DNA of 64,000 nt from assembly GCA_036253495.1 (NCBI GenBank), contig GCA_036253495.1_4125.1; one strand, given 5' to 3'. The notes below the pieces were generated by a model. That model did no database searches and was not told the origin of the DNA. It saw nothing but the letters and a program-made list of their open reading frames with translations. Positions 391 through 58,530 of the stretch are shown here, in pieces. The first letter of the stretch is position 1, and the number at the start of each line of letters is the position of its first letter. The translations under genes and the position numbers were made by a program. The DNA is from a phage.

Positions 391-1799
391 AAAGTAATTT
401 AGAAAATATACGCAAAAAAGCCGATAATTTAGTACTATGTTGTATAGGGGCTTTATTCGCTGTTACTTTAGTTTCCGGTGTTGTTCATGGTAGTTTTATT
501 ATTGCACTAATCGGTGCAGTTTTATTATTAGTAATGCTAACTCCTTTACTATTTGTTGAAAGTAATGCGTTCACTCGAACGTTGTTAAGTATAAATGTGA
601 TGTGCTGGAGTGCGTTACTAATACATCTTGGCTTAGGGATGGTGGAATGGCACTTTACAGTTTTTGTCTTTTTAAGTTTATTGATTGTATGGCGTGACTG
701 GCGTTGTGTATTAGCAGGTTCAGTACTGATTGCTATACATCATTTATTATTTGGATTGTTACAGGGTGCTGGAATTCCAATATTATTCGTGTTTTCTTTT
801 CACCATATTTCGTTATGGCACATTATAGAGCACGCAATATATGTAGTAGTACAGGCAATAGTTCTGATGTACGTAGCGTACATTATGGAGAAAGATGCAA
901 ATGAAGCAGATGAAATTCAACGAATTGCAAGATCAGTGAATTCTGAAGACGGCAATATTACTTTAGAAATACAAAATAATCATTTCAACTCCGAATTTGC
1001 ACAGACTTTTAGTAAAACAATATCAGCTATGCGTGAGGCAATTGAACAAGTACAAATTACAGTTCAGTCAATGAAAAGCAACTCCTATCATCTCGAAAGT
1101 AAAAGTAATGATTTAGCTTTCAGAACTGAAACACAAGGACAGGCACTTACTCAAATCGCTGCTGCTATGGAAGAATTAAGTGCTACATCTGCAAATACAT
1201 CTGATAACTCCAATACTGCAAAAAGTATGGTTAAAACTACAAAAGAATCCAGTACTAATGCAATTGAAAGTATCAATAATTGCAAAGAGCAGATGGATAG
1301 AATTAAAGAAGATTCTAATGCTATAGTTGCTATACTCAAAAATATAGAAACTATTGCTTTCCAGACTAATATTCTTTCTTTAAATGCCAGTATTGAAGCT
1401 GCTAAAGCTGGTGAACATGGACGTGGATTCTCTGTTGTTGCACAGGAAGTTCGTAACTTAGCAATGAAATGTGATGCATGTAGTAAAGAAATTAAAGAAA
1501 TCGTTGATAACTCCGTAAAAAACAACAACCAAGGAATAGAACAAATCAACGAAACTGCAAGTGATATTGATTCTATTGTAAAAAATGTTGATTCACTCTT
1601 GCAGTTCATTGATGATTTAGCTATAATGGCTGAACAACAAAGCATTGCAATCCTTCAGGTTACTGAGAGTGTTAATATGATGGACCGTTCAGTACAGCAA
1701 AATGCGGAGCATGTAAAGGACACAATGATGATGGTAGACAATCAACAGTCTGAAGTACATGCTTTACAAAAAGCCACTTCGATTTTTAACGTGAAATAA
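387..1799 (+). CDS. methyl-accepting chemotaxis protein-like membrane protein
   Basis: 470 aa; TTG start with GGAGA about 7 nt upstream; N-terminal ~150 aa strongly hydrophobic (several predicted TM helices); C-terminal region carries the MCP signalling-domain core [33 protein letters not shown]; intrinsic terminator immediately downstream. Confidence 0.85.
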
Positions 1800-1806
1800 T
1801 TTTAAA

Positions 1807-1832
1807 GCCAGGGTATTGACTCTGGCTTTTTT
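1807..1832 (+). terminator. rho-independent terminator
   Basis: GC hairpin gccagg..tctggc followed by TTTTTT. Confidence 0.7.
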
Positions 1833-1872
1833 CTTTGCTATTATTTTAATATTATTTAACCGAGGATATCAT

Positions 1873-2427
1873 ATGGACAATTACCTATTAATCTTACAAA
1901 TTTACAACGAACTGGGAAAACTTCTTGAAACGTGTAATTCACAGGGACGTAAATTAAGAATCGGTTTCGATTATGAAATTGAATACACAGGAGAGGGTAT
2001 TGCAACGCAGCAGATGTTCACAGAAGAAAATAAAACTATTCTGTGCGTTTACCCACATGAAGGTGATGAGGAAGACTGTGTTGTTGATTTTTCATATGAC
2101 AGTTCTTGGGCTTTTATTTCACGTAATCCTCGAATGAAAGAGGCAGTGGATTACAAAGAACCATCATATGATCCTATTGCGTTGTTCAGTACTGAGAATT
2201 TAGAAGAACAAAATTTCCAGAGTTCTGTAACTCACGATAAATTAATCACTGATGCACTTACGATTGAAGCTTTAGCACGTAACTATAAATTTGATTTCAA
2301 TCTCAATAATTATTATATGTCATATAGTGCAACAGCATCATTACTCACTGATGATCAATTAGTAGTATTACTCAAGGACTTGAAAAACTACGCACAAACG
2401 AGAAAAGAACATGAAAACACTAATTGA
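1873..2427 (+). CDS. hypothetical protein, FQ-motif paralog family
   Basis: Track ORF 1816..2427 trimmed to first ATG at 1873 (GAGGA RBS; upstream part overlaps the terminator); motif EEQNFQSS. Confidence 0.65.
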   Translation: MDNYLLILQIYNELGKLLETCNSQGRKLRIGFDYEIEYTGEGIATQQMFTEENKTILCVYPHEGDEEDCVVDFSYDSSWAFISRNPRMKEAVDYKEPSYDPIALFSTENLEEQNFQSSVTHDKLITDALTIEALARNYKFDFNLNNYYMSYSATASLLTDDQLVVLLKDLKNYAQTRKEHENTN

Positions 2428-2983
2428 TATTTTTAAAGTACTAGAAGAACTTACTCATAAGTTAGATGAACAAAAAAGAACTGAGAATATTTTTCATTAC
2501 TTCAACAATCCAATGTACCGATTAGTTTTTGATTGCAGTACTTTGTATCGTTATGCTAATATCCAAATACAACACTGCATTCAACATAAAACCAAAAATA
2601 TATGGTCAGTTGATGCTTCTTATGTGGCATCAGGCAGAGAGAGTAAATTTTTGGGTTCAGTTTCTGATTGTAGTCTTACTGTGAATAAACTCAAAGAAAC
2701 TAACGAATTAATCGTCAGAAATTTGTACGATGATTATTATGATGATGAAGAATATCTTCATATTGCACCTGAGCTACAAAATCCAGAAGAGCGAGAAGCA
2801 TATCTTTTCCAGTTGTCGTTGCTCCCAGGTTATGATATGATAGCTAAAGCTGATTTTGTATATCAACTATCAATGCAACTTGGTAGTGGGGAGTGTTCTG
2901 CTTTCAATAATCTATACAATGAAAGTACTGAAACACAAGAAGAATTATTGGAGGAATTAAATGCATTTCTCAAATCTTTATAA
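2411..2983 (+). CDS. hypothetical protein, FQ-motif paralog family
   Basis: ORF track; motif AYLFQLSL; short overlap with neighbours. Confidence 0.65.
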   Translation: MKTLIDIFKVLEELTHKLDEQKRTENIFHYFNNPMYRLVFDCSTLYRYANIQIQHCIQHKTKNIWSVDASYVASGRESKFLGSVSDCSLTVNKLKETNELIVRNLYDDYYDDEEYLHIAPELQNPEEREAYLFQLSLLPGYDMIAKADFVYQLSMQLGSGECSAFNNLYNESTETQEELLEELNAFLKSL

Positions 2984-3539
2984 TTACATGTCCGAAGAGT
3001 ATCAATATTACACTAAGATGGTTTTGAAAGTGAATGCTATTCTTAATAGTGATTTATGTAAAACTAAAAAGACATTTAATCTCCCATATATGCGTTTGGC
3101 GATTACTAAAGACCAGGAAGGTATGTATGATCATGCAGTAGTTTCGATGAATGATCTACGTGTCTTTCTGATAATTAAGTACAATAAAGAAGATTTAACC
3201 AACAACGATGGGTACATTAACTACGATTATATTATTGGAGGAAATGCTGAAGTTCCAGGGACAAGTGAATTTGCAGGGATTGTTATTTCAGGTAAAAAAA
3301 TTCCAAAGATTAATCTTAACAGTAGTACTATAGAAGAAGAACTATTCCAGTTAAGTACTATGTACAGTACTAACGAATTGGATTTATTACTTTTCAGTAC
3401 AATCGTCAATCATGAACTGGATAAGAAAGACAAATACTGTCCATTGCAACAAATTGTTCATCGTTTCAAACGTAGTGAATTTAAAAGAATTCATGAAGGT
3501 CTGGACAGTCTTATTAACAATACTGGGGATTTCTCATGA
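2961..3539 (+). CDS. hypothetical protein, FQ-motif paralog family
   Basis: ORF track; motif EEELFQLST. Confidence 0.65.
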   Translation: MHFSNLYNYMSEEYQYYTKMVLKVNAILNSDLCKTKKTFNLPYMRLAITKDQEGMYDHAVVSMNDLRVFLIIKYNKEDLTNNDGYINYDYIIGGNAEVPGTSEFAGIVISGKKIPKINLNSSTIEEELFQLSTMYSTNELDLLLFSTIVNHELDKKDKYCPLQQIVHRFKRSEFKRIHEGLDSLINNTGDFS

Positions 3540-4096
3540 AATATAGTCTTTACTATAGAGGGAAGTTCCTTGAGAAGTTTATTGAAGATTGTGTAGCTGC
3601 ACTGAGTTTAATTCGTGAAGGTGAATACATTAAAGTCAATCACACTGTACTAAGAGATCTTAATTTTTTTCTGAGTGGTGATTTGAATAATGATATGCAC
3701 TTCACAATAACGTACAACCACAAAGATATCATTGAAATCAATACACAACAACGACACATAAAAGAATACACCCGATTACGCAATACCAAGACAAAGCGTG
3801 TAGTAATTAAAAAAGGTGATGTAGAGTTGATGTGTAAAGATAGTACTGCAATAGATATCAGTACTTACTTCGATAATGAAGAAGATATGGATTGTGATTG
3901 CTTCCAGAAGAGTTTAATTATTGATGATCCGTATGTACTGTACGGTGCAGTACTGGCTCCGTTCTGTCAGAAGAACTTACCAGATGGATGTACGGTTGAA
4001 TTGAACTTGACAGAACTCATGAATGATGATATATTTGAGTACATGAGTACTAACTCCAAGGCAATGATTGAACATATTAAGGCAATCCAATGTTAA
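3536..4096 (+). CDS. hypothetical protein, FQ-motif paralog family
   Basis: ORF track; ATGA overlap; motif DCDCFQKSL. Confidence 0.65.
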   Translation: MKYSLYYRGKFLEKFIEDCVAALSLIREGEYIKVNHTVLRDLNFFLSGDLNNDMHFTITYNHKDIIEINTQQRHIKEYTRLRNTKTKRVVIKKGDVELMCKDSTAIDISTYFDNEEDMDCDCFQKSLIIDDPYVLYGAVLAPFCQKNLPDGCTVELNLTELMNDDIFEYMSTNSKAMIEHIKAIQC

Positions 4097-4575
4097 ATCC
4101 AGCAGACGTTATTAAATTTTGTAAAATTCTTGAGAAGTATTCTCATAAATTTGTGCACGAAGTACAGATAATGATTGATGGCATTCCCTTTAACTTCGTG
4201 AAAAACAACGACATTATCGCTGTGTTCTGTGGCTCATGGACATTTTGTGAACTCAACTGTCAAGAATCTCAAAATGTTATTGTGAAACGAAACATGATCC
4301 TATCAAGGGAAAGTTCAGTATTCATTGAACCAAGTGGTGAAATCATATACGAGAAAAAGAACGGCGACAGAACTTTAGATGATTTTATGGCTGAATTGAG
4401 CCTTGATAATGAGTTTCATAGAAATGCAGTACTGATACATAGTGCTATGGTGCATGAAACTAATTTAAATTCTATATCAATTAATTTCGGTGTTTATTCT
4501 TATTACAAATTTACATTTGATATGATATTTCAAACACTTAACAAACATCCTATATTCTGGAAATGCAATGAATAA
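4090..4575 (+). CDS. hypothetical protein
   Basis: ORF track; tight packing. Confidence 0.6.
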   Translation: MLNPADVIKFCKILEKYSHKFVHEVQIMIDGIPFNFVKNNDIIAVFCGSWTFCELNCQESQNVIVKRNMILSRESSVFIEPSGEIIYEKKNGDRTLDDFMAELSLDNEFHRNAVLIHSAMVHETNLNSISINFGVYSYYKFTFDMIFQTLNKHPIFWKCNE

Positions 4576-10829: not shown

Positions 10830-11666
10830 ATGTTCTTAAACTTCAAAGAGTATTCAGTACTTGATCATATCAAGATTCTATCTGAGAATCCTGAAACATT
10901 TGGTGCAGTAAAAACAGCAAATGGAGAATCTTATGATGTTTATAACATTACAGGACATACTGTTTCTGTAAAAAACAATATCCGTCCTTCGACACTAGAT
11001 ATTAATATTCGTAATAATGAAACTTATGAAACTTCACTATCATACGAATATGATTCAGATCTTAAGTCTGAAATATTCAACACACCATCAGTCCATTATT
11101 ACAAGTCAGAAGATACAATTCGTTACCGAGATACCACGATTAATGATATAGTTTTTAATCGTAGAATTAATGCCAGTGGTATAGTTTCAGTTCGTAGTAC
11201 TGATAGATTTGCAAAATATACTGTCGAAAATAATGTACGATCATTTGAAACAACTTTCCGTCTAACACAAGGTACAGAAGAAAGCAACATCACACTCCAA
11301 GAACGTTTGTCATCAGACGGGATTATTATGCGTAGTGTTGCTTTTTTCAGATATAACACCGAAGATGGGCGTCCAGTGATGTGTGATTTGGATATCACTC
11401 GTACAGGTGATAAAACAATTGCCACTATAACCTCTGGATACCGACATTCGTTTACATTAGAACTGGATGTACCTGATGCATCATTACTTGGTATTTTTGA
11501 TCCGCTGGCAGCATTTCAAGCAGAGTTAGTACTGAACCCTAAGCAGTACGAGATTCTTGATATCTTACGTAAAGGCATAGTTAATAAGTTGAAAACTTAC
11601 CAACAGTTAGGTGGTAAGATGAGTATAGTTAATACTATTCTCGAAAATATTGAAAGAGTAAGTTAA
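10830..11666 (+). CDS. hypothetical protein (278 aa)
   Basis: ORF track; GAGGAAATG RBS context. Confidence 0.7.
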   Translation: MFLNFKEYSVLDHIKILSENPETFGAVKTANGESYDVYNITGHTVSVKNNIRPSTLDINIRNNETYETSLSYEYDSDLKSEIFNTPSVHYYKSEDTIRYRDTTINDIVFNRRINASGIVSVRSTDRFAKYTVENNVRSFETTFRLTQGTEESNITLQERLSSDGIIMRSVAFFRYNTEDGRPVMCDLDITRTGDKTIATITSGYRHSFTLELDVPDASLLGIFDPLAAFQAELVLNPKQYEILDILRKGIVNKLKTYQQLGGKMSIVNTILENIERVS

Positions 11667-11686
11667 TACATGGAGATAGATTTAGT

Positions 11687-11989
11687 ATGGATACTAAATT
11701 TGAAATTAAATTCTTGACACAACCATATACTCCTAATACTGGGAAACGTTTTATTCCTGAAGGAGCAGTAGAGGTTGTTCACCCTGATGGTACTAAATTG
11801 TATTTGAATCCATGTTCATATGAGCGTGCTGTTGAAATGCTTATCATGAACTGTAAGCACAATACAAAGACAGAGGACAGTAAGTACATCAGTTATCTAT
11901 ATAGCGAGCACATCCTCGACTTCCAAGACGAGAATATGTTCATCCTTGCAATTCAAGACTTTGAAAATTGGATTGAAAATATTGTCTAA
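11687..11989 (+). CDS. hypothetical protein
   Basis: ORF track; GGAGATAG RBS. Confidence 0.65.
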   Translation: MDTKFEIKFLTQPYTPNTGKRFIPEGAVEVVHPDGTKLYLNPCSYERAVEMLIMNCKHNTKTEDSKYISYLYSEHILDFQDENMFILAIQDFENWIENIV

Positions 11990-39659: not shown

Positions 39660-40181
39660 ATGAACTATAATCAATTATCACAAGAAGATACTGATATTTG
39701 GCTAAAGAACGTAAACAATACGTTGGAACTTGTGCGACAATGTATTTCGGAAGCTGACCGTGTATCAGACGAAGCTAAAGAAAAAACATACAAACACTTT
39801 CACCGTAATATCTTCATGAAAATTTATGCACTTACTATGTATAATATGTACAAACCATCTGATATTTTTATTGGGTTGTATAGTGGGGCGATGTTCACAT
39901 TAGGTGGGATTTTTTCAGATACTGGTCGTACATTAGAACAAAACGAAAAAGATGTTATCGTGGCAGTTGATAAGATTATGAATAAGGAAGTGGATTTCAT
40001 TCTGGAAATCGTTCGTTGCTGGAATGTTTATAGCTCAAAACCATTTGACATTACACAGAAAGATATAGTAGACTATATGCGTATTTTACGTACACATCAG
40101 ATCTGTAAAGAACTATTAACCAATTTAGGGACATATGATGAAACATACAACGTGGTTGAAGATAGCCAGTGTCGTTGCTGA
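39660..40181 (+). CDS. hypothetical protein
   Basis: ORF track. Confidence 0.65.
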   Translation: MNYNQLSQEDTDIWLKNVNNTLELVRQCISEADRVSDEAKEKTYKHFHRNIFMKIYALTMYNMYKPSDIFIGLYSGAMFTLGGIFSDTGRTLEQNEKDVIVAVDKIMNKEVDFILEIVRCWNVYSSKPFDITQKDIVDYMRILRTHQICKELLTNLGTYDETYNVVEDSQCRC

Positions 40182-40617
40182 GGAAAGTAAGTGTCTTTCC
40201 CAGAAAGTAGGTTGTGTTATTGTAAAGAATAACCGAGTATTGAGTACTGGATATAACGGTACACCATCAAAGCAACCTAACTGTTGTGATGTTAATAAAC
40301 ATCTCGTAAACAATGGTCAATTTCAAAATTGGATTGATGAAGATGCAAAACACTTACATCACGAGTGGAGCAACATTCATGAGATCCATGCGGAAATGAA
40401 TGCATTACTATATAGTTCACCACAAGAACGTCAGGGTGCAACACTTTACACCACACTCCAACCGTGCTATACTTGTTCTAAGTTAATCGCTGGTAGTGGT
40501 ATTTCTCGTGTAATTTACGAAAAATCGTATCCTCGCACTCCACCAGAAGCTATTAAAGTACTGGAAGATGCTGGGATTATTGTAAATTGTATCTATGATA
40601 ATGGACTCAATAAATGA
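40135..40617 (+). CDS. cd: dCMP deaminase
   Basis: 160 aa; zinc-binding deaminase motifs HAEMNAL and PCYTCS. Confidence 0.85.
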   Translation: MMKHTTWLKIASVVAEESKCLSQKVGCVIVKNNRVLSTGYNGTPSKQPNCCDVNKHLVNNGQFQNWIDEDAKHLHHEWSNIHEIHAEMNALLYSSPQERQGATLYTTLQPCYTCSKLIAGSGISRVIYEKSYPRTPPEAIKVLEDAGIIVNCIYDNGLNK

Positions 40618-53500: not shown

Positions 53501-53507
53501 GGATATC

Positions 53508-54125
53508 ATGACAACATCACAAAAGTACTGGTGGATTTTGGGACACCCTGAATTTATCAATAAAGACTACGTTGATGCTCGCATTGATGTTGAGCCACAC
53601 GATGTATGTCCCATCACCAATCGTATTGAAGATTATCCGGTACTGAATACAAAAACACAGTACTGGATCGAAATGCTAACTCCGTTTTTCGATGAAGACG
53701 AAGGGAAGTTCGTTCGTGGACATGAGTACGAGTTGGATTGTGGTGGTGATACATATGAAGAAGCAATTGATAATTTATACACCAAGATCCTAGAAAAGTA
53801 TGGTGATTACACACAAGAAGAAGCGGAAGCTAAGTATGATGCTGTACATCAGCGTGTAGTGACGAAAAGTGCTTTTCCTTCATCAATGTTCCAACCAGAA
53901 GAACTTCGTAACACATGGGAGAACTCAAAATTATCTGAAATTGAACTTGATTATATTCCAGGTGATATTGAAAACATTAAAGGTACAATAAAAGCCTTGA
54001 AAGAATTCCTCAAAACTTGTACAATAGAAGAACAAGAAGAGGCAAACAAACATTTACAATCAGAGGAATGTAAACTATGGGTGCTTGAGGAATCACTTAG
54101 AAAAGGTATAGACTACAACATATGA
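53508..54125 (+). CDS. hypothetical protein
   Basis: ORF track. Confidence 0.65.
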   Translation: MTTSQKYWWILGHPEFINKDYVDARIDVEPHDVCPITNRIEDYPVLNTKTQYWIEMLTPFFDEDEGKFVRGHEYELDCGGDTYEEAIDNLYTKILEKYGDYTQEEAEAKYDAVHQRVVTKSAFPSSMFQPEELRNTWENSKLSEIELDYIPGDIENIKGTIKALKEFLKTCTIEEQEEANKHLQSEECKLWVLEESLRKGIDYNI

Positions 54126-54490
54126 ACCCGAAATTGCTTAAACTGGTAGAAGAACTCCGTGAGATGCCGCCGATTGAACAAGTCGGTAATTACAAACGGT
54201 ATAGAGTAATTGCTCGTGCACTGGATAAGAAAGGTCGAGTACTGGCTACTCGTACCAACTCTTACACACAGACTCACCCTAAGCAGAAAGGCTTTGCAAT
54301 TCGTGCGGGTCGCCCTCAAGGGGAATTTTTACACGCTGAAATTTCGTGTCTTCTTGCTGCTCGTGCTGAAGTACATACTCTTCTTATCGCTCGTGTAAGT
54401 AAAGATGGAATTCCAGTTCCAGCAAAACCTTGTGAGATTTGTACATTAGCAATTCAGGAGTACGGGGTAAAAGAGATTATCCATACATGA
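54122..54490 (+). CDS. small cytidine/deoxycytidylate deaminase-like zinc-binding protein
   Basis: 122 aa; HAE (LHAEISCLL) and PCxxC (PCEIC) zinc-deaminase motifs. Confidence 0.6.
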   Translation: MNPKLLKLVEELREMPPIEQVGNYKRYRVIARALDKKGRVLATRTNSYTQTHPKQKGFAIRAGRPQGEFLHAEISCLLAARAEVHTLLIARVSKDGIPVPAKPCEICTLAIQEYGVKEIIHT

Positions 54491-54708
54491 AAATTGAACG
54501 ATATCAGCACCATACTGTACTGTTTGGTGAATCAATAATGTACTATTATATTTTTGAGCCAAAACATTCGTTACAAATAACTATATACGAAAATGGTAAA
54601 TTTAAAGATACCAATTTCCCATTACATGAATTGGCATTATATTCCAGTACTGATCACTTTAAGCATTTAGTATTTGTATATTGTATTCCAAATGAAAACG
54701 AGGAATAA
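54487..54708 (+). CDS. hypothetical small protein
   Basis: Track ORF 54439..54708 trimmed to ATG overlapping upstream stop. Confidence 0.55.
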   Translation: MKIERYQHHTVLFGESIMYYYIFEPKHSLQITIYENGKFKDTNFPLHELALYSSTDHFKHLVFVYCIPNENEE

Positions 54709-55396: not shown

Positions 55397-55421
55397 TAAA
55401 GCACCCAAGTGGTGCTTTTTG
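55397..55421 (+). terminator. rho-independent terminator
   Basis: Hairpin agcacc/ggtgct followed by TTTTT. Confidence 0.65.
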
Positions 55422-55554: not shown

Positions 55555-56496
55555 ATGCAAATAGATAAATTATATACGGACGTAACTAACTTCCTCAACC
55601 AGAGTAACGCTGATTTAACAAATGAAAATGCAAATAAAGACGCTAAATGTGTTAATACACATCGTGATTTATTGGCAGGTATTCTTTCTAAACATTATTC
55701 CCAAGATGTGATTCCTGATGAATTGATGAAGTGGCATAATGAAGGTTACGGTCATATTCATGATTTAGACTATTACATTAGCCCATTAACAAACTGTTGT
55801 TTAGTTAATTATCCTGATATGCTTGCTAATGGCTTCATGATTGGTTGTGCCAAGATTGAAGAACCAAAAAGCTTTGGGGTAGCTTGTACAGTACTAACAC
55901 AGATTGTTCAGGCTGTGGCAAGTTCACAGTACGGTGGTCAGTCGTTGGCTCACATTGACACTGGCCTTGCACCATATGTACAAAAGTCATGGGATAAACT
56001 TCTAGAAAAACAAAAGAAATACAATCTTAGTACTGAATTCATCGAAGATGAGTTGCGTAAGGAAGTTTATGACGGTTGTCAAACAATTCTATATCAAACA
56101 AACTCAATGATCAGTACTAATGGTCAGGCTGCGTTCATTTCTTTGAGTTTAGGATTAGGTACATCTAAATTTGAAAAACTAATCACTGAACAATATTTGA
56201 AAGTACATGAAAATGGACTAGGTAAAGATAAGATTACTCCAGTATTTCCTAAAGTAATATTCTTTCTTCAGGATGGAATTAATATGAATACCAATGATAC
56301 TAACTATGATCTTAAACAGTTAGCTATGCGTTGTGCATCAAAAAGAATCTATCCAGACTTTGTTTCTGTACCATTGAACCATAAAGTAACTGGAAGTACC
56401 AGTACTGCTGTTACTCCTATGGGATGCAGAAGCTTCTTAGGTAAATGGGAAGATGAAAATGGCAACGAACAGTACAATGGCCGTTTCAATTTGGGT
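55555..56496 (+). CDS. nrdD: anaerobic ribonucleoside-triphosphate reductase NrdD, exon 1
   Basis: N-terminal 314 codons of a class III RNR; the frame runs into the interruption and stops at 56523; proposed 5-prime splice site after ...GRFNLG (exon ends in U). Confidence 0.75.
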
Positions 56497-57666
56497 AGAC
56501 ATACATGCCCCATTGCTGAGTGATCAGTAATTGCAAACACGTTAACATGCTGGAACCCCCTAAAGCCATAAACACTACAACGCAATCTTAATAGATAAAC
56601 GTGAATGTTACGAGAGTAGAAAAAAGTTTTATGGATATATAATAAGTTGTAAATCATATTATATGTACAATGGGAAATCAGCAGCCAAGCCATCATTAAT
56701 ATAATGGTGGAAGGTTCAACGAGTATAATACGTGACTCTAATATTAAAACTTCCATAAATAATATTTTATGGAGGATATATAATGAGAAAAGGAAGTATA
56801 TATAAAATAGAATGTATAGTAACTAATAAAGTTTATATTGGACAAACCGTTTTATATCCACCGATGAAAAGATGGGTGGAACACTGCCAAAACAATGATG
56901 AAAAATCATGTATTAGTAAAGCTATTAAAAAATTTGGTTTTGAAAATTTCACATTTCAAATTTTAAAAACTAATATTGATTTAAATAATCTTAATGATGA
57001 AGAAATAAAATATATTGAAATTTATGATAGTTATAAGAATGGTTACAACTCAACATTAGGTGGTCACCAAACCTTTAATGGAAGTAAAATAACTGAACTT
57101 GATGCTATAAAAATTATAGAATATATTAAATCATATAAAGATCTTTCATTCGTAGAAATAGCAAAAACTTTAAATGTTCCATACGGCTGTGTAAGTGATA
57201 TAAATTGTGGCGAAACTTGGTATCAAATAAATGAAACATACCCTATTAGAGATAACAAAAGAAATAAGATTGAAGATAATATAGATTCAATTTATGAGTT
57301 ATTGAGAAATGGTGTTTCTAGTATAGAAATTGCAAAAATATATAATGTTTCAAATGTCACCATTTGTAACGTTAATAATGGAACAATCTATCGAAACGAA
57401 TCAGTTGAATACCCAATTTTTAAACCACAAAATTCATCAAAACGACATTCTATTGAAATAGTTTCTAAGATTATTGATATGTTAATTAATACAGATAAAA
57501 ATTATTCTGAAATTGCAAAATGTTTAAATGTAGGAAGAAAAACTGTTGCAAATATCAATAACGGTTCTGGATATAAAGAACTATCAAATGAACTTGGTTA
57601 TATATCATTTCCTCTTCGTTAGAGTATGGTGTACTCTAATCCTTCATGAAAGTGAAGGTACAAATG
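56497..57666 (+). mobile_element. probable group I intron interrupting nrdD, carrying a GIY-YIG homing endonuclease ORF
   Basis: 1.17 kb separating two halves of nrdD; exon 1 ends in T, the interruption ends in G (candidate omega-G); GCCCC a few nt inside the 5-prime end can pair with exon GGGU (P1 with U-G wobble); ~285 nt structured segment precedes the ORF, as in the T4 nrdD intron. Confidence 0.6.
56783..57622 (+). CDS. GIY-YIG homing endonuclease (I-TevII-like)
   Basis: 279 aa; N-terminal GIY-YIG module (GSIYKIECIVTNKVYIGQT); repeated helix-turn-helix-like segments downstream; lies within the nrdD interruption. Confidence 0.8.
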   Translation: MRKGSIYKIECIVTNKVYIGQTVLYPPMKRWVEHCQNNDEKSCISKAIKKFGFENFTFQILKTNIDLNNLNDEEIKYIEIYDSYKNGYNSTLGGHQTFNGSKITELDAIKIIEYIKSYKDLSFVEIAKTLNVPYGCVSDINCGETWYQINETYPIRDNKRNKIEDNIDSIYELLRNGVSSIEIAKIYNVSNVTICNVNNGTIYRNESVEYPIFKPQNSSKRHSIEIVSKIIDMLINTDKNYSEIAKCLNVGRKTVANINNGSGYKELSNELGYISFPLR

Positions 57667-58530
57667 GTTGTCTCAATCAACCTACCGCTAATTGCTCTTG
57701 AAAGCACTACTGATGGTGATTTCTTTGATAAGATAGATGAGCATATGAACATTGCATACAGAGCACAGATGAACCGTGTAGAGCGTTTAAAAGGTACTAA
57801 GGCTAAACAGAACCCGATTCTGTTCATGGAAGGTGCTCTTGCACGTCTTGATGCAGAAGAAACTATTGACAAACTCTTCTACGATGGTTATGCTAGTATT
57901 AGTATTGGTTATGTAGGATTAGTTGAATGTTCAGAGATTTTGACTGGTTCAATCAGTAAAGAGTTCTGTATGTCAGTACTGAATTATATGAAAGTCAAAT
58001 GCGATGAGTTCAAAAAAGAGAGTAACATAGCTTTTAGTCTATATGGAACCCCAGCAGAGTCACTTTGCTACAAATTTGCACGTTGCATCGAATCTAAGTA
58101 CCCTTCAGTACTAAAACGTGATTACATCACAAATTCCTTCCATCAACCAGTATGGGTAGAAAGTTCACCATTTGATAAGTGGAGTTACGAAGAGGGCTTT
58201 GCTTACCTCAGCAATGGAGGAAACATCAGTTATGTGGAATCACCCAACCTAAGTAACAATATTCAAGCACTTGAGACTTTAGTCAATTACGCTTACACAA
58301 AGATTCCATATTTTGGCATCAACCAGCCAATTGACCAGTGTTTCGAGTGTGGGTATAAAGGTGAGTTCAGTGTAGATAAACACGGTTTTCATTGTCCAGT
58401 ATGTGATAATCGCAATGAGAAGACAATCTCAGTGATTCGTCGTGTTTCTGGATATTTGGGGAACCCATCGTCTCGTGGATTCAACAAAGGCAAACAACAA
58501 GAATGTTGTGAGCGTATACAACACAAATAA
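57667..58530 (+). CDS. nrdD: anaerobic ribonucleoside-triphosphate reductase NrdD, exon 2
   Basis: C-terminal part with zinc ribbon CFECGY...CPVCDN and glycyl-radical motif RRVSGYLG; exon junction reads ...FNLG|VVSINLPLIALE. Confidence 0.75.
   Translation, partial: VVSINLPLIALESTTDGDFFDKIDEHMNIAYRAQMNRVERLKGTKAKQNPILFMEGALARLDAEETIDKLFYDGYASISIGYVGLVECSEILTGSISKEFCMSVLNYMKVKCDEFKKESNIAFSLYGTPAESLCYKFARCIESKYPSVLKRDYITNSFHQPVWVESSPFDKWSYEEGFAYLSNGGNISYVESPNLSNNIQALETLVNYAYTKIPYFGINQPIDQCFECGYKGEFSVDKHGFHCPVCDNRNEKTISVIRRVSGYLGNPSSRGFNKGKQQECCERIQHK

Follow-up and report, generated by a model that had tools for sequence, protein, structure and literature searches.

The deaminases of the deoxycytidine monophosphate (dCMP) deaminase/ComE clade share a set of synapomorphies: a bihelical insert that separates strand 2 from helix 2 and holds a Cys/His zinc site, an NxxP motif that ends strand 2, the residues NA two positions past the HxE motif, a TxxxT motif in strand 3 and the Helix-4 topology (PMC3239186, Iyer et al.). 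The zinc motif of the insert consists of two Cys and one His, together with a Cys before strand 1 (PMC3239186 Table 1; PMC12088426). dCMP deaminases further carry an allosteric G(Y/W)N(A/G) motif and assemble into ring-shaped homohexamers that are activated by deoxycytidine triphosphate (dCTP) and inhibited by thymidine triphosphate (dTTP) (PMC12088426, Slyvka et al.). Here we describe a 122-amino-acid (aa) protein encoded in a 64,000-nucleotide stretch of phage DNA (GenBank assembly GCA_036253495.1, contig GCA_036253495.1_4125.1; hereafter the window), which, judged from its sequence, belongs with its relatives to a minimal clade of the CDA/deaminase superfamily that is specific to phages and as yet unnamed. 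An annotation of the gene exists, and both the superfamily and its chemistry are established. What sets the clade apart is a four-strand minimal core (extended by a short hairpin in relatives), the loss of all synapomorphies of the dCMP deaminases (DCTDs), a new invariant S/T-H-P-x-Q motif and R91, together with strong positive charge, apparent restriction to phages and coexistence with true DCTDs.

The window shares ~97% identity with Escherichia phage A4, a jumbo phage (355 kb, genus Asteriusvirus), and the 122-aa protein is 100% identical to A4_486, which is annotated as "dCMP deaminase". Related phages have orthologs of A4_486 that carry the labels hypothetical, "CMP/dCMP-type deaminase domain" or "cytidine deaminase". 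Our literature search found no paper that characterises the clade or separates it from the dCMP deaminases, and genome papers repeat the label.

The 122-aa protein and the described deaminase clades

The coding sequence (54122..54490, + strand; ATG start, TGA stop) specifies a basic protein (isoelectric point (pI) 9.67; net charge +7.8, about +8) that carries, on a beta-alpha-beta core, the helix-2 motif [HC]xE and the helix-3 motif PCxxC. Residues H71-A72-E73 (54332..54340, +) form the HAE motif, in which H71 is the putative zinc ligand and E73 the putative catalytic Glu, and P103-C104-E105-I106-C107 (54428..54442, +) form the PCEIC motif, in which C104 and C107 would be the remaining zinc ligands. 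Conservation, computed throughout over 201 family sequences, is 100% for H71, E73, P103, C104 and C107 and 97% for A72; A-K precedes the second motif, and no Arg follows it. The original prediction, which read this open reading frame (ORF) as a second, minimal zinc deaminase from its HAE and PCxxC motifs, is thus confirmed, and the zinc-ligand residues fall in register with deaminase active sites. The profile search that it called for gave a match to Pfam PF00383 (dCMP_cyt_deam_1) over residues 23-120 at 30.0 bits (curated cut-off 25, E 5.1e-7), and phrog_174, "dCMP deaminase", matched at E 5.8e-13. A CDA-fold model of the protein is confident, and its significant fold matches are deaminases without exception. 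No NCBIfam model came near its cut-off, and a single-sequence phmmer search of the PDB gave no match, so that a family profile was needed there. From these sequence features, the protein is almost certainly a true and active zinc deaminase of the CDA superfamily.

The predicted structure comprises a helix (3-14), two strands (28-34 and 40-45) and an insert helix (53-61) in the N-terminal half, followed by the HAE helix (72-80), a strand (86-92), the PCxxC helix (105-113) and a last strand (118-121). The chain stops at T122 directly after strand 4, with neither strand 5 nor helix 4. Two further elements mark the family. The motif N46-S-Y-T-Q-T-H-P-K-Q55 (54257..54286, +; family consensus N-S-Y-x-K-[TS]-H-P-x-Q) starts the strand-2/helix-2 insert, with conservation of N46 (99%), Y48 (80%), K50 (68%), [TS]51, H52 (91%), P53 (93%) and Q55 (91%). 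R91 (54392..54394, +; 99%) ends strand 3 and opens an insert of ~11 residues (R91-K102) ahead of PCxxC that dCMP deaminases and TadA do not have. The rest of the signature consists of A59, G63, L-H-A-E, G96 (90%), [AS]-K-P-C-x-I-C, A110, G115 and a terminal [YHF]-[TS].

The window also encodes a canonical dCMP deaminase (Cd) of 160 aa and pI 7.6 (40135..40617, +), which carries all the DCTD synapomorphies, including GYNGTPS, a Cys-rich insert, HAEMNA, TLQPC and IYEKSYPR, and which scores 78 bits against PF00383 and E 1.8e-60 against phrog_174, "dCMP deaminase". The claim that the smaller protein is distinct from this enzyme and shorter is borne out: it has 122 residues against 160, and BLASTP found no significant similarity between the two. 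They are therefore related at the level of profile and fold only, and the small gene is neither a recently duplicated cd nor a piece of it. Its GC content (43.9%; cd has 37.9% and the window overall 34.5%) may reflect a composition rich in Arg, Ala, Gly and Pro, or a foreign origin. A search with the family profile ranked the 138-aa dCMP deaminase of cyanophage S-TIM5 first among solved proteins (E 1.7e-11, full-length alignment), ahead of a Mycoplasma tRNA deaminase and then the dCMP deaminases of S. mutans, human and T4.

None of the hallmarks of the DCTD/Cd/ComEB clade (T4 Cd, 1VQ2; S-TIM5 dCD, 4P9C; human DCTD, 2W4L) is retained beyond the CDA-fold core and the HxE and PCxxC zinc site that the protein has in common with it. 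Residues 47-70 contain no Cys and only H52 as a conserved candidate, so that the zinc cluster of the insert is absent. At the position of NxxP and G(Y/W)N(A/G) the protein reads R-T-N-S-Y-T and the family G-x-N-S-Y-x; N is not preceded by an aromatic residue, and position +3 is not P. HAE is followed by I-S-C (family I-[SA]-A), without the Asn; strand 3 reads T86-L-L-I-A90 in place of TxxxT, with A, E or V at position 90 in the family; and the post-strand-4 Tyr, helix 4, parallel strand 5 and the sequence elements of the allosteric site are missing from the 122-aa protein. It is also shorter (122 aa vs 140-190 aa) and more basic (pI 9.7 vs about 5-7.6) than members of that clade, and it differs further in the additional insert of ~11 residues ahead of PCxxC and in its occurrence alongside true DCTDs. 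Since every testable dCMP-deaminase synapomorphy fails, the label "dCMP deaminase" is unsupported as a family assignment.

Phage homologs of dCMP deaminases with other substrates differ from the 122-aa protein as well. Several of them show that an annotated dCMP deaminase may take a di- or triphosphate. Some such homologs can be dCTP deaminases, those of PBS1 and PhiR1-37 being dCTP-specific and that of DSS3_VP1 promiscuous (PMC12697855). The zinc-dependent phage enzymes Dcd_DSS3_VP1 and Dcd_PhiR1-37 also lack a second structural metal site; together with the PBS1 enzyme, the bi-DCD of PBCV-1 (7FH4) and CDADC1, they are full-length Helix-4 DCTD homologs, unlike the 122-aa protein. The PhiR1-37 and DSS3_VP1 dCTP deaminases were considered as family members and rejected, as tblastn searches with family members failed to detect them. 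mSCD-B5 and its homologs are 5-methylcytosine (5mC)-selective phage deaminases that act on 5mC in deoxynucleoside triphosphates (dNTPs) and in single-stranded DNA (ssDNA) (preprint 10.1101/2024.12.05.627091). mSCD-B5 resembles the 122-aa protein in being a phage-encoded PF00383 protein annotated as a dCMP deaminase, and its substrates (modified dCTP, ssDNA) differ from that label. It is a 154-aa protein of prototypical DCTD fold (Foldseek E 3e-15 to 7FH4) with a cis-linked thymidylate-synthase homolog, whereas our model matches 7FH4 at E 1.4e-3 only and no thymidylate-synthase homolog is linked to the gene in this way. Neither the phosphorylation level nor the mono- or polynucleotide nature of a substrate can be read from homology.

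Comparison with other clades leads no further. In TadA/ADAT2 the zinc motif is EPClMC and tRNA is bound through C-terminal helices. At this position the 122-aa protein has A-K-P-C-E-I-C (in the family, K in 66% at position 102 and I/V at 106), and its chain ends after strand 4, without strand 5 or the two C-terminal helices with their conserved E and F; the absence of both features argues that it is not a TadA. The CDD/CDA signature C[H]AE is present as HAE, the minority His form. PCxxCR is replaced by PCEIC-T (family position 108: Q 20%, S 19%, E 15%, with Arg outside the top three), which places the protein outside the CDA clade. Strands 4 and 5 of CDD/CDA enzymes form an antiparallel hairpin that has a Glu where strand 5 ends. 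Tetrameric CDA and blasticidin-S deaminase usually have CAE, N-x-E and PCxxCR, in contrast to HAE, N-S-Y and no PCxxCR here, and they differ further from the 122-aa protein in its long conserved strand-2/helix-2 insert, strong basic charge and lack of strand 5.

Truncated toxin deaminases are known from polymorphic toxin systems (YwqJ, BURPS668_1122, XOO_2897 and MafB19; PMC3239186), and like the 122-aa protein they are naturally truncated past helix 3 or strand 4. With the YwqJ clade it shares a conserved His in the insert (H52), the insert between strand 3 and CxxC (R91-K102) and the end after strand 4, which amounts to resemblance only: in place of Gx[CH]xE the family has [YF]-L-H-A-E, with no Gly at -2, and PF14431 gave no match at E <= 1. 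With MafB19 the family shares an Asn at the end of strand 2 and a Gly before strand 4; PF14437, the MafB19-like model, scored 13 bits against a cut-off of 27, the basic residue of +xxCxxC is found at -2 (K102) and not at -3, and the model is non-specific, with canonical DCTDs scoring 57 bits. YwqJ-type deaminases form the C-terminal module of secreted polymorphic toxins and have an immunity gene beside them. Family genes are stand-alone phage ORFs of 100-140 aa whose products are predicted to be cytoplasmic, with no RHS/PAAR/LXG, secretion or immunity gene in their context. Among defence deaminases, no PADLOC or NCBIfam (NF041025) match was found for the small protein, and its canonical paralog matched only partially.

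A phage family with basic charge and replication-linked loci

An exhaustive family-profile search of 1.84 billion cluster representatives (clusters at 50% identity) returned 4,076 such clusters when E was capped at 1e-3 and 922 when it was capped at 1e-10. Among the 150 best matches, lengths run from 96 to 166 aa, and each matches to the last one or two profile positions. Members typically have 100-140 aa and either end after strand 4, as in 94/123 relatives from word-indexed searches and about half of the wider set, or add a short beta-hairpin. In tailed relatives the model places an antiparallel hairpin without helix 4 (P0183, for example, with E119-124 and E127-132), and many of the tails contain an E, at no fixed position.

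The family looks exclusive to phages. Using two short peptide patterns from the same source alignment for both scans, we found relatives in 448 viral contigs of IMG/VR and 18 matches among 185,579 bacterial and archaeal species, one genome each. The 18 cellular matches lie on contigs of 0.7-58 kb from metagenome-assembled genomes (MAGs) of scattered taxa, including candidate phyla radiation (CPR) bacteria and a methanogen, with none in an isolate genome; they are probably mis-binned phage DNA. Cultured carriers include the Rak2-like jumbo phages (Asteriusvirus, K64-1, GAP32, CBB, Serratia phage BF, Eneladusvirus phages of Erwinia and Yersinia, and Xanthomonas phage XaC1), phiKZ-like Pseudomonas phages, T4-like cyanophages, Aeromonas phages of 115-124 kb and Limnohabitans phage DC31.

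Basic charge is a property of the whole family (median pI 9.7 and median net charge +9 in 260 members), whereas co-resident canonical dCMP deaminases have pI 5.0-7.6. The median pI of 114 crude ORFs in the window is 5.6, with only 3.5% of them reaching 9.67, and the charge per 100 aa across 87 other phage loci is +9.1 for the family and -0.7 for similar-sized neighbours. A basic family in otherwise acidic proteomes argues that the charge is not a compositional artefact. Such charge suits a polyanionic ligand, either a triphosphate or a nucleic acid. The running text of the phAPEC6 proteome paper contains no statement that supports virion packaging as the reason for it.

For the 87 loci, ORFs were called and clustered and their identities confirmed with Pfam; the tally comes from a tighter alignment that is biased toward one branch (members of ~100 aa) and includes related contigs, so its counts are not independent. 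Neighbours were DnaB-type helicase (28), a CobS-like AAA+ ATPase (18, directly upstream in 17), Pol A (17), Toprim primase (17), a CobT-like VWA protein (16), ThyX (15, 10-24 genes off), the large and small subunits of ribonucleotide reductase (RNR; 11-12, 5-8 genes upstream) and the deoxynucleotidase NT5C (8). This branch of the family thus sits in modules for replication and dNTP supply. In the complete 115-kb genome of Aeromonas phage phiA019, where the annotation includes thymidylate synthase, dUTPase, NrdA/B and NrdD/G, a six-frame scan (an ad hoc canonical-DCTD hidden Markov model, the family hidden Markov model and a motif pattern) found the small protein as the sole CDA-fold deaminase. 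It therefore occupies the slot that Cd holds in T4-type toolkits, and no other single finding weighs as much for a nucleotide-pool role. The immediate annotated surroundings in phiA019, PA7 and S-SCSM1 are hypothetical proteins only. Carriers are AT-rich, with GC contents of 34.5% in the window, 34% in PA7 and phiA019, 37.5% in DC31, 39% in S-SCSM1 and 27-50% (median 41%) in 80 IMG/VR loci. Their known hosts have ~51-66% GC, and such a difference fits a need to shift deoxycytidine (dC) to thymidine (dT).

Small and canonical deaminases also occur together. They lie 14 kb apart in the window, 3.2 kb apart in contig L008, 6 kb apart in L018 and adjacent in L089; in DC31 (L093, 33684-34729) they stand on the same strand 245 bp apart, separated by a single 267-bp ORF, with ThyX 4 kb off. 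DC31 has exactly two CDA-fold ORFs, of which the small one is annotated "hypothetical protein". The canonical paralogs in all five show GYNGxPxG, a Cys-containing insert, HAExN and Y-x-x-x-Y-[RP]. The window and L008 have similar gene sets (Clp protease, Cd, Rnl1, polynucleotide kinase) and may not be independent cases; DC31 is a different kind of phage. Coexistence with a canonical DCTD argues that the small enzyme is no mere substitute for Cd.

Candidate substrates

We infer an activity, substrate class, lack of regulation and physiological role only tentatively, from the fold and intact active site, the conservation and charge of the family, its exclusivity to phages and its gene associations. 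In the reading that has most support, the 122-aa protein may be a zinc deaminase that works autonomously and without allostery on free cytosine deoxynucleotides, raising the supply of deoxyuridine monophosphate (dUMP) and dTTP. Zinc would be held by H71, C104 and C107, and a zinc-bound water, with E73 as proton shuttle, would attack C4 of the cytosine with release of ammonia. The substrate would most likely be dCMP, its diphosphate dCDP or dCTP, and the product would lead to dUMP for thymidylate synthase and so to more dTTP for a genome of 34.5% GC in a host of ~51% GC. Canonical dCMP deaminases have an apparatus for allostery and hexamer formation; without it, the enzyme would offer an unregulated route, in this phage a second one beside the regulated 160-aa Cd. 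In genomes that also encode Cd, it might act at a different phosphorylation level or outside the control of dCTP and dTTP. A reasonable guess is that the cationic surface serves a di- or triphosphate substrate, which would avoid redundancy with Cd. Vertebrate CDADC1 binds its triphosphate through a lysine-lined cationic pocket (PMC12088426), and a need for dC-to-dT conversion has been argued for chloroviruses, where PBCV-1, a low-GC virus of a high-GC host, encodes a bifunctional dCMP/dCTP deaminase (PMC10142491).

The intact active site, invariant in 201 relatives, speaks for such an enzyme. T4 Cd contacts the dC moiety through V24, N40, A105, E106 and P131 (PMC12697855), and the conserved V29, N46, A72, E73 and P103 are their expected equivalents, as placed by sequence context and the PDB profile alignment; these positions are near-generic for the fold. 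The strand-2/helix-2 insert of the 122-aa protein lies at the place where, in dCMP deaminases, the insert caps the pocket and restricts access to soluble substrates (PMC3239186). Several points weigh on the other side. The zinc-supported insert and the post-strand-4 Tyr, which shape the nucleotide pocket, are absent, and canonical DCTDs are already present in the window, DC31, L008, L018 and L089. A charge of ~+9 per ~120 aa exceeds the need of one nucleotide pocket and is typical of proteins that bind polyanions or nucleic acids. ThyX lies 10-24 genes off and is not adjacent, many of the 87 loci come from related phages, and low GC and module-level co-location are common among large phages. 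Our literature search found no biochemical characterisation of any family member.

The original prediction offered a cytidine or a nucleic-acid deaminase, and these two halves fared differently. A deaminase of polynucleotides, that is, a minimal cationic enzyme acting on cytosine (or adenine) in RNA or ssDNA, be it RNA of host or phage, a replication intermediate or the DNA of the host, is the main rival of the free-nucleotide reading, possible though doubtful. The strong positive charge throughout the family and the missing C-terminal elements lend it some support, and we regard as similarly uncertain the wider proposal that the family is the smallest natural CDA-fold class (~100-120 aa, four strands, ~+9), exclusive to phages and acting on polynucleotides such as fork ssDNA or RNA. 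Yet the protein has no nucleic-acid-binding extension, no toxin, immunity or secretion context, neither the Gx[CH]xE motif nor a PF14431 match, and neither EPClMC nor the C-terminal helices of TadA. A DNA deaminase would, moreover, mutate the phage's own unmodified genome, and in phiA019 the small protein is the sole deaminase next to thymidylate synthase, dUTPase and RNR. TadA-like editing of phage-encoded A34 tRNAs was rejected: none of ~95 tRNAs near family genes (58 loci) has A34, nor does any in the complete tRNA set of DC31 (GTA, TGG, GTT, TTC, TGT, CAT). A deaminase at the level of nucleosides or bases, acting on cytidine, deoxycytidine or cytosine in the manner of CDA or blasticidin-S deaminase and serving pyrimidine salvage beside dCMP deaminase, is improbable because PCxxCR, the CDA synapomorphy, is absent and the ribose-binding Glu is replaced. 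As for the suggested roles of pool manipulation or base editing, the dNTP and replication modules and the sole deaminase of phiA019 lean toward pool manipulation.

Two further explanations are very unlikely. The small protein could be a hetero-oligomeric partner of canonical dCMP deaminase, a basic subunit paired with an acidic one, much as ADAT2 pairs with ADAT3 or one domain of CDADC1 with the other, that tunes regulation or specificity. Both proteins occur together in at least three genome contexts, near-adjacent in DC31 and L089, their charges are complementary (+6 to +9 vs -7 to +1), and the small protein has no C-terminal elements of its own; but only 4/87 loci have another deaminase-like ORF within 10 kb (three of them canonical-sized), the whole genome of phiA019 holds no second deaminase, the two genes of the window are 14 kb apart, and the invariant catalytic residues argue for autonomous catalysis. 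Equally slight is the chance of a substrate other than cytosine; candidates are guanine- or adenine-type purines (as base or nucleotide), intermediates of pterin or riboflavin type, precursors of 7-deazaguanine and nucleotides of immune signalling.

Local surroundings and meaning of the family

The gene lies within a co-directional string of small ORFs and overlaps its neighbours by ATGA on both sides. Upstream, the TGA of a 205-aa ORF (53508..54125, +; phrog_16370, function unknown) overlaps the deaminase ATG, and downstream the ATG of a 73-aa ORF (54487..54708, +; equivalent to A4_487, no family match) overlaps the deaminase TGA. Immediate neighbours belong only to PHROGs of unknown function and have no Pfam match. 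No internal terminator was found within the string, the 3' end of which is marked by a terminator-like hairpin (55398-55418, +, with a T-run to 55428) 127 nt before nrdD; around the gene, promoter-like sites do not exceed their frequency in shuffled sequence. The 5' part of nrdD, for anaerobic ribonucleotide reductase (55555..56523, +), begins 1.07 kb downstream and is the closest gene of known function, with nrdD and nrdG together lying 1-4 kb 3' of the deaminase gene. An Rfam scan of the whole window gave no match, and the window holds no tRNA genes.

The window differs from A4 at two places near the gene. At 53504/53505, A4 has ~850 bp more (L001, 4533-5383), including A4_484 (267 aa, hypothetical), so that the window comes from a close relative of A4 and not from A4 itself. 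In the nrdD region, similarity to A4 ends at 56451 and restarts at 58529 (window 56452-58528; A4 L001, 8306-9575); the intervening sequence holds the end of the 322-aa nrdD ORF (55555-56523) and a 279-aa GIY-YIG-like ORF (56783-57622). This divergence suggests an insertion of homing-endonuclease, intron or intein type, or a replaced 3' half of nrdD; no group I intron was found there at the Rfam gathering threshold. A DUF4326 gene (A4_492; L001, 9586-9918; window ~58.5-58.9 kb) lies between a small glycyl-radical ("pyruvate formate-lyase") ORF and nrdG. By A4 annotation, the window at ~24-27, ~35-38 and ~46-50 kb encodes RNA ligase and polynucleotide kinase/phosphatase of tRNA-repair type, DNA ligase, metallophosphoesterase, Clp protease, a Sir2-like protein and PhoH (A4_427, A4_432, A4_451-455, A4_471 and A4_475), a gene set also found next to the two deaminases in L008 and L011, contigs of 136-147 kb that look unrelated.

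Other family loci show features of their own. Permuted transfer-messenger RNA (tmRNA) genes lie within 10 kb of the small deaminase in L059 (7423-7723), L069 (7280-7580), L084 (14790-15090) and L078 (10588-10977), with tag peptides ANDNVAFALAA or ANDNDVAFALAA. L078 also has an ARAGORN-predicted tRNA with anticodon CTA ("tRNA-Pyl", 1834-1908), a possible amber suppressor, beside two tRNA-Met genes. In L005 (5655-6008) and L006 (110-463), a YAcAr gene (PF10686, SLOG-superfamily, nucleotide-binding) overlaps the start of the small deaminase, and genes for topoisomerase I and NUDIX proteins follow downstream in this lineage; the YAcAr and deaminase genes could be a lineage-specific functional pairing. 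In L011, a 147-kb phage contig, a 7-deazaguanine gene set of preQ0 type (630-4273 and 11329-11868; GTP cyclohydrolase I, QueF-like, QueC and PTPS/QueD) lies 1-5 kb from the small deaminase, along with genes for Rnl1 RNA ligase and PNKP.

For this protein, hundreds of phage genomes give the label "dCMP deaminase", "cytidine deaminase", "TadA" or "hypothetical", and our comparisons place the family in none of these clades. Even true phage DCTD homologs have unexpected substrates (dCTP, 5mC, ssDNA). The family shows how far the deaminase fold can shrink, to a form without strand 5, helix 4 or a second zinc site, with an invariant active site. If it acts on polynucleotides, lytic phages from Rak2- and phiKZ-like jumbo phages to cyanomyoviruses would carry an enzyme for nucleic-acid editing or attack, and an unusually compact deaminase would be available as a scaffold for base editors. 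Knowledge of the substrate would fill a gap in how phiKZ-like phages, Rak2-like phages and cyanophages rebalance their pyrimidine pools, or would reveal a new nucleic-acid activity.

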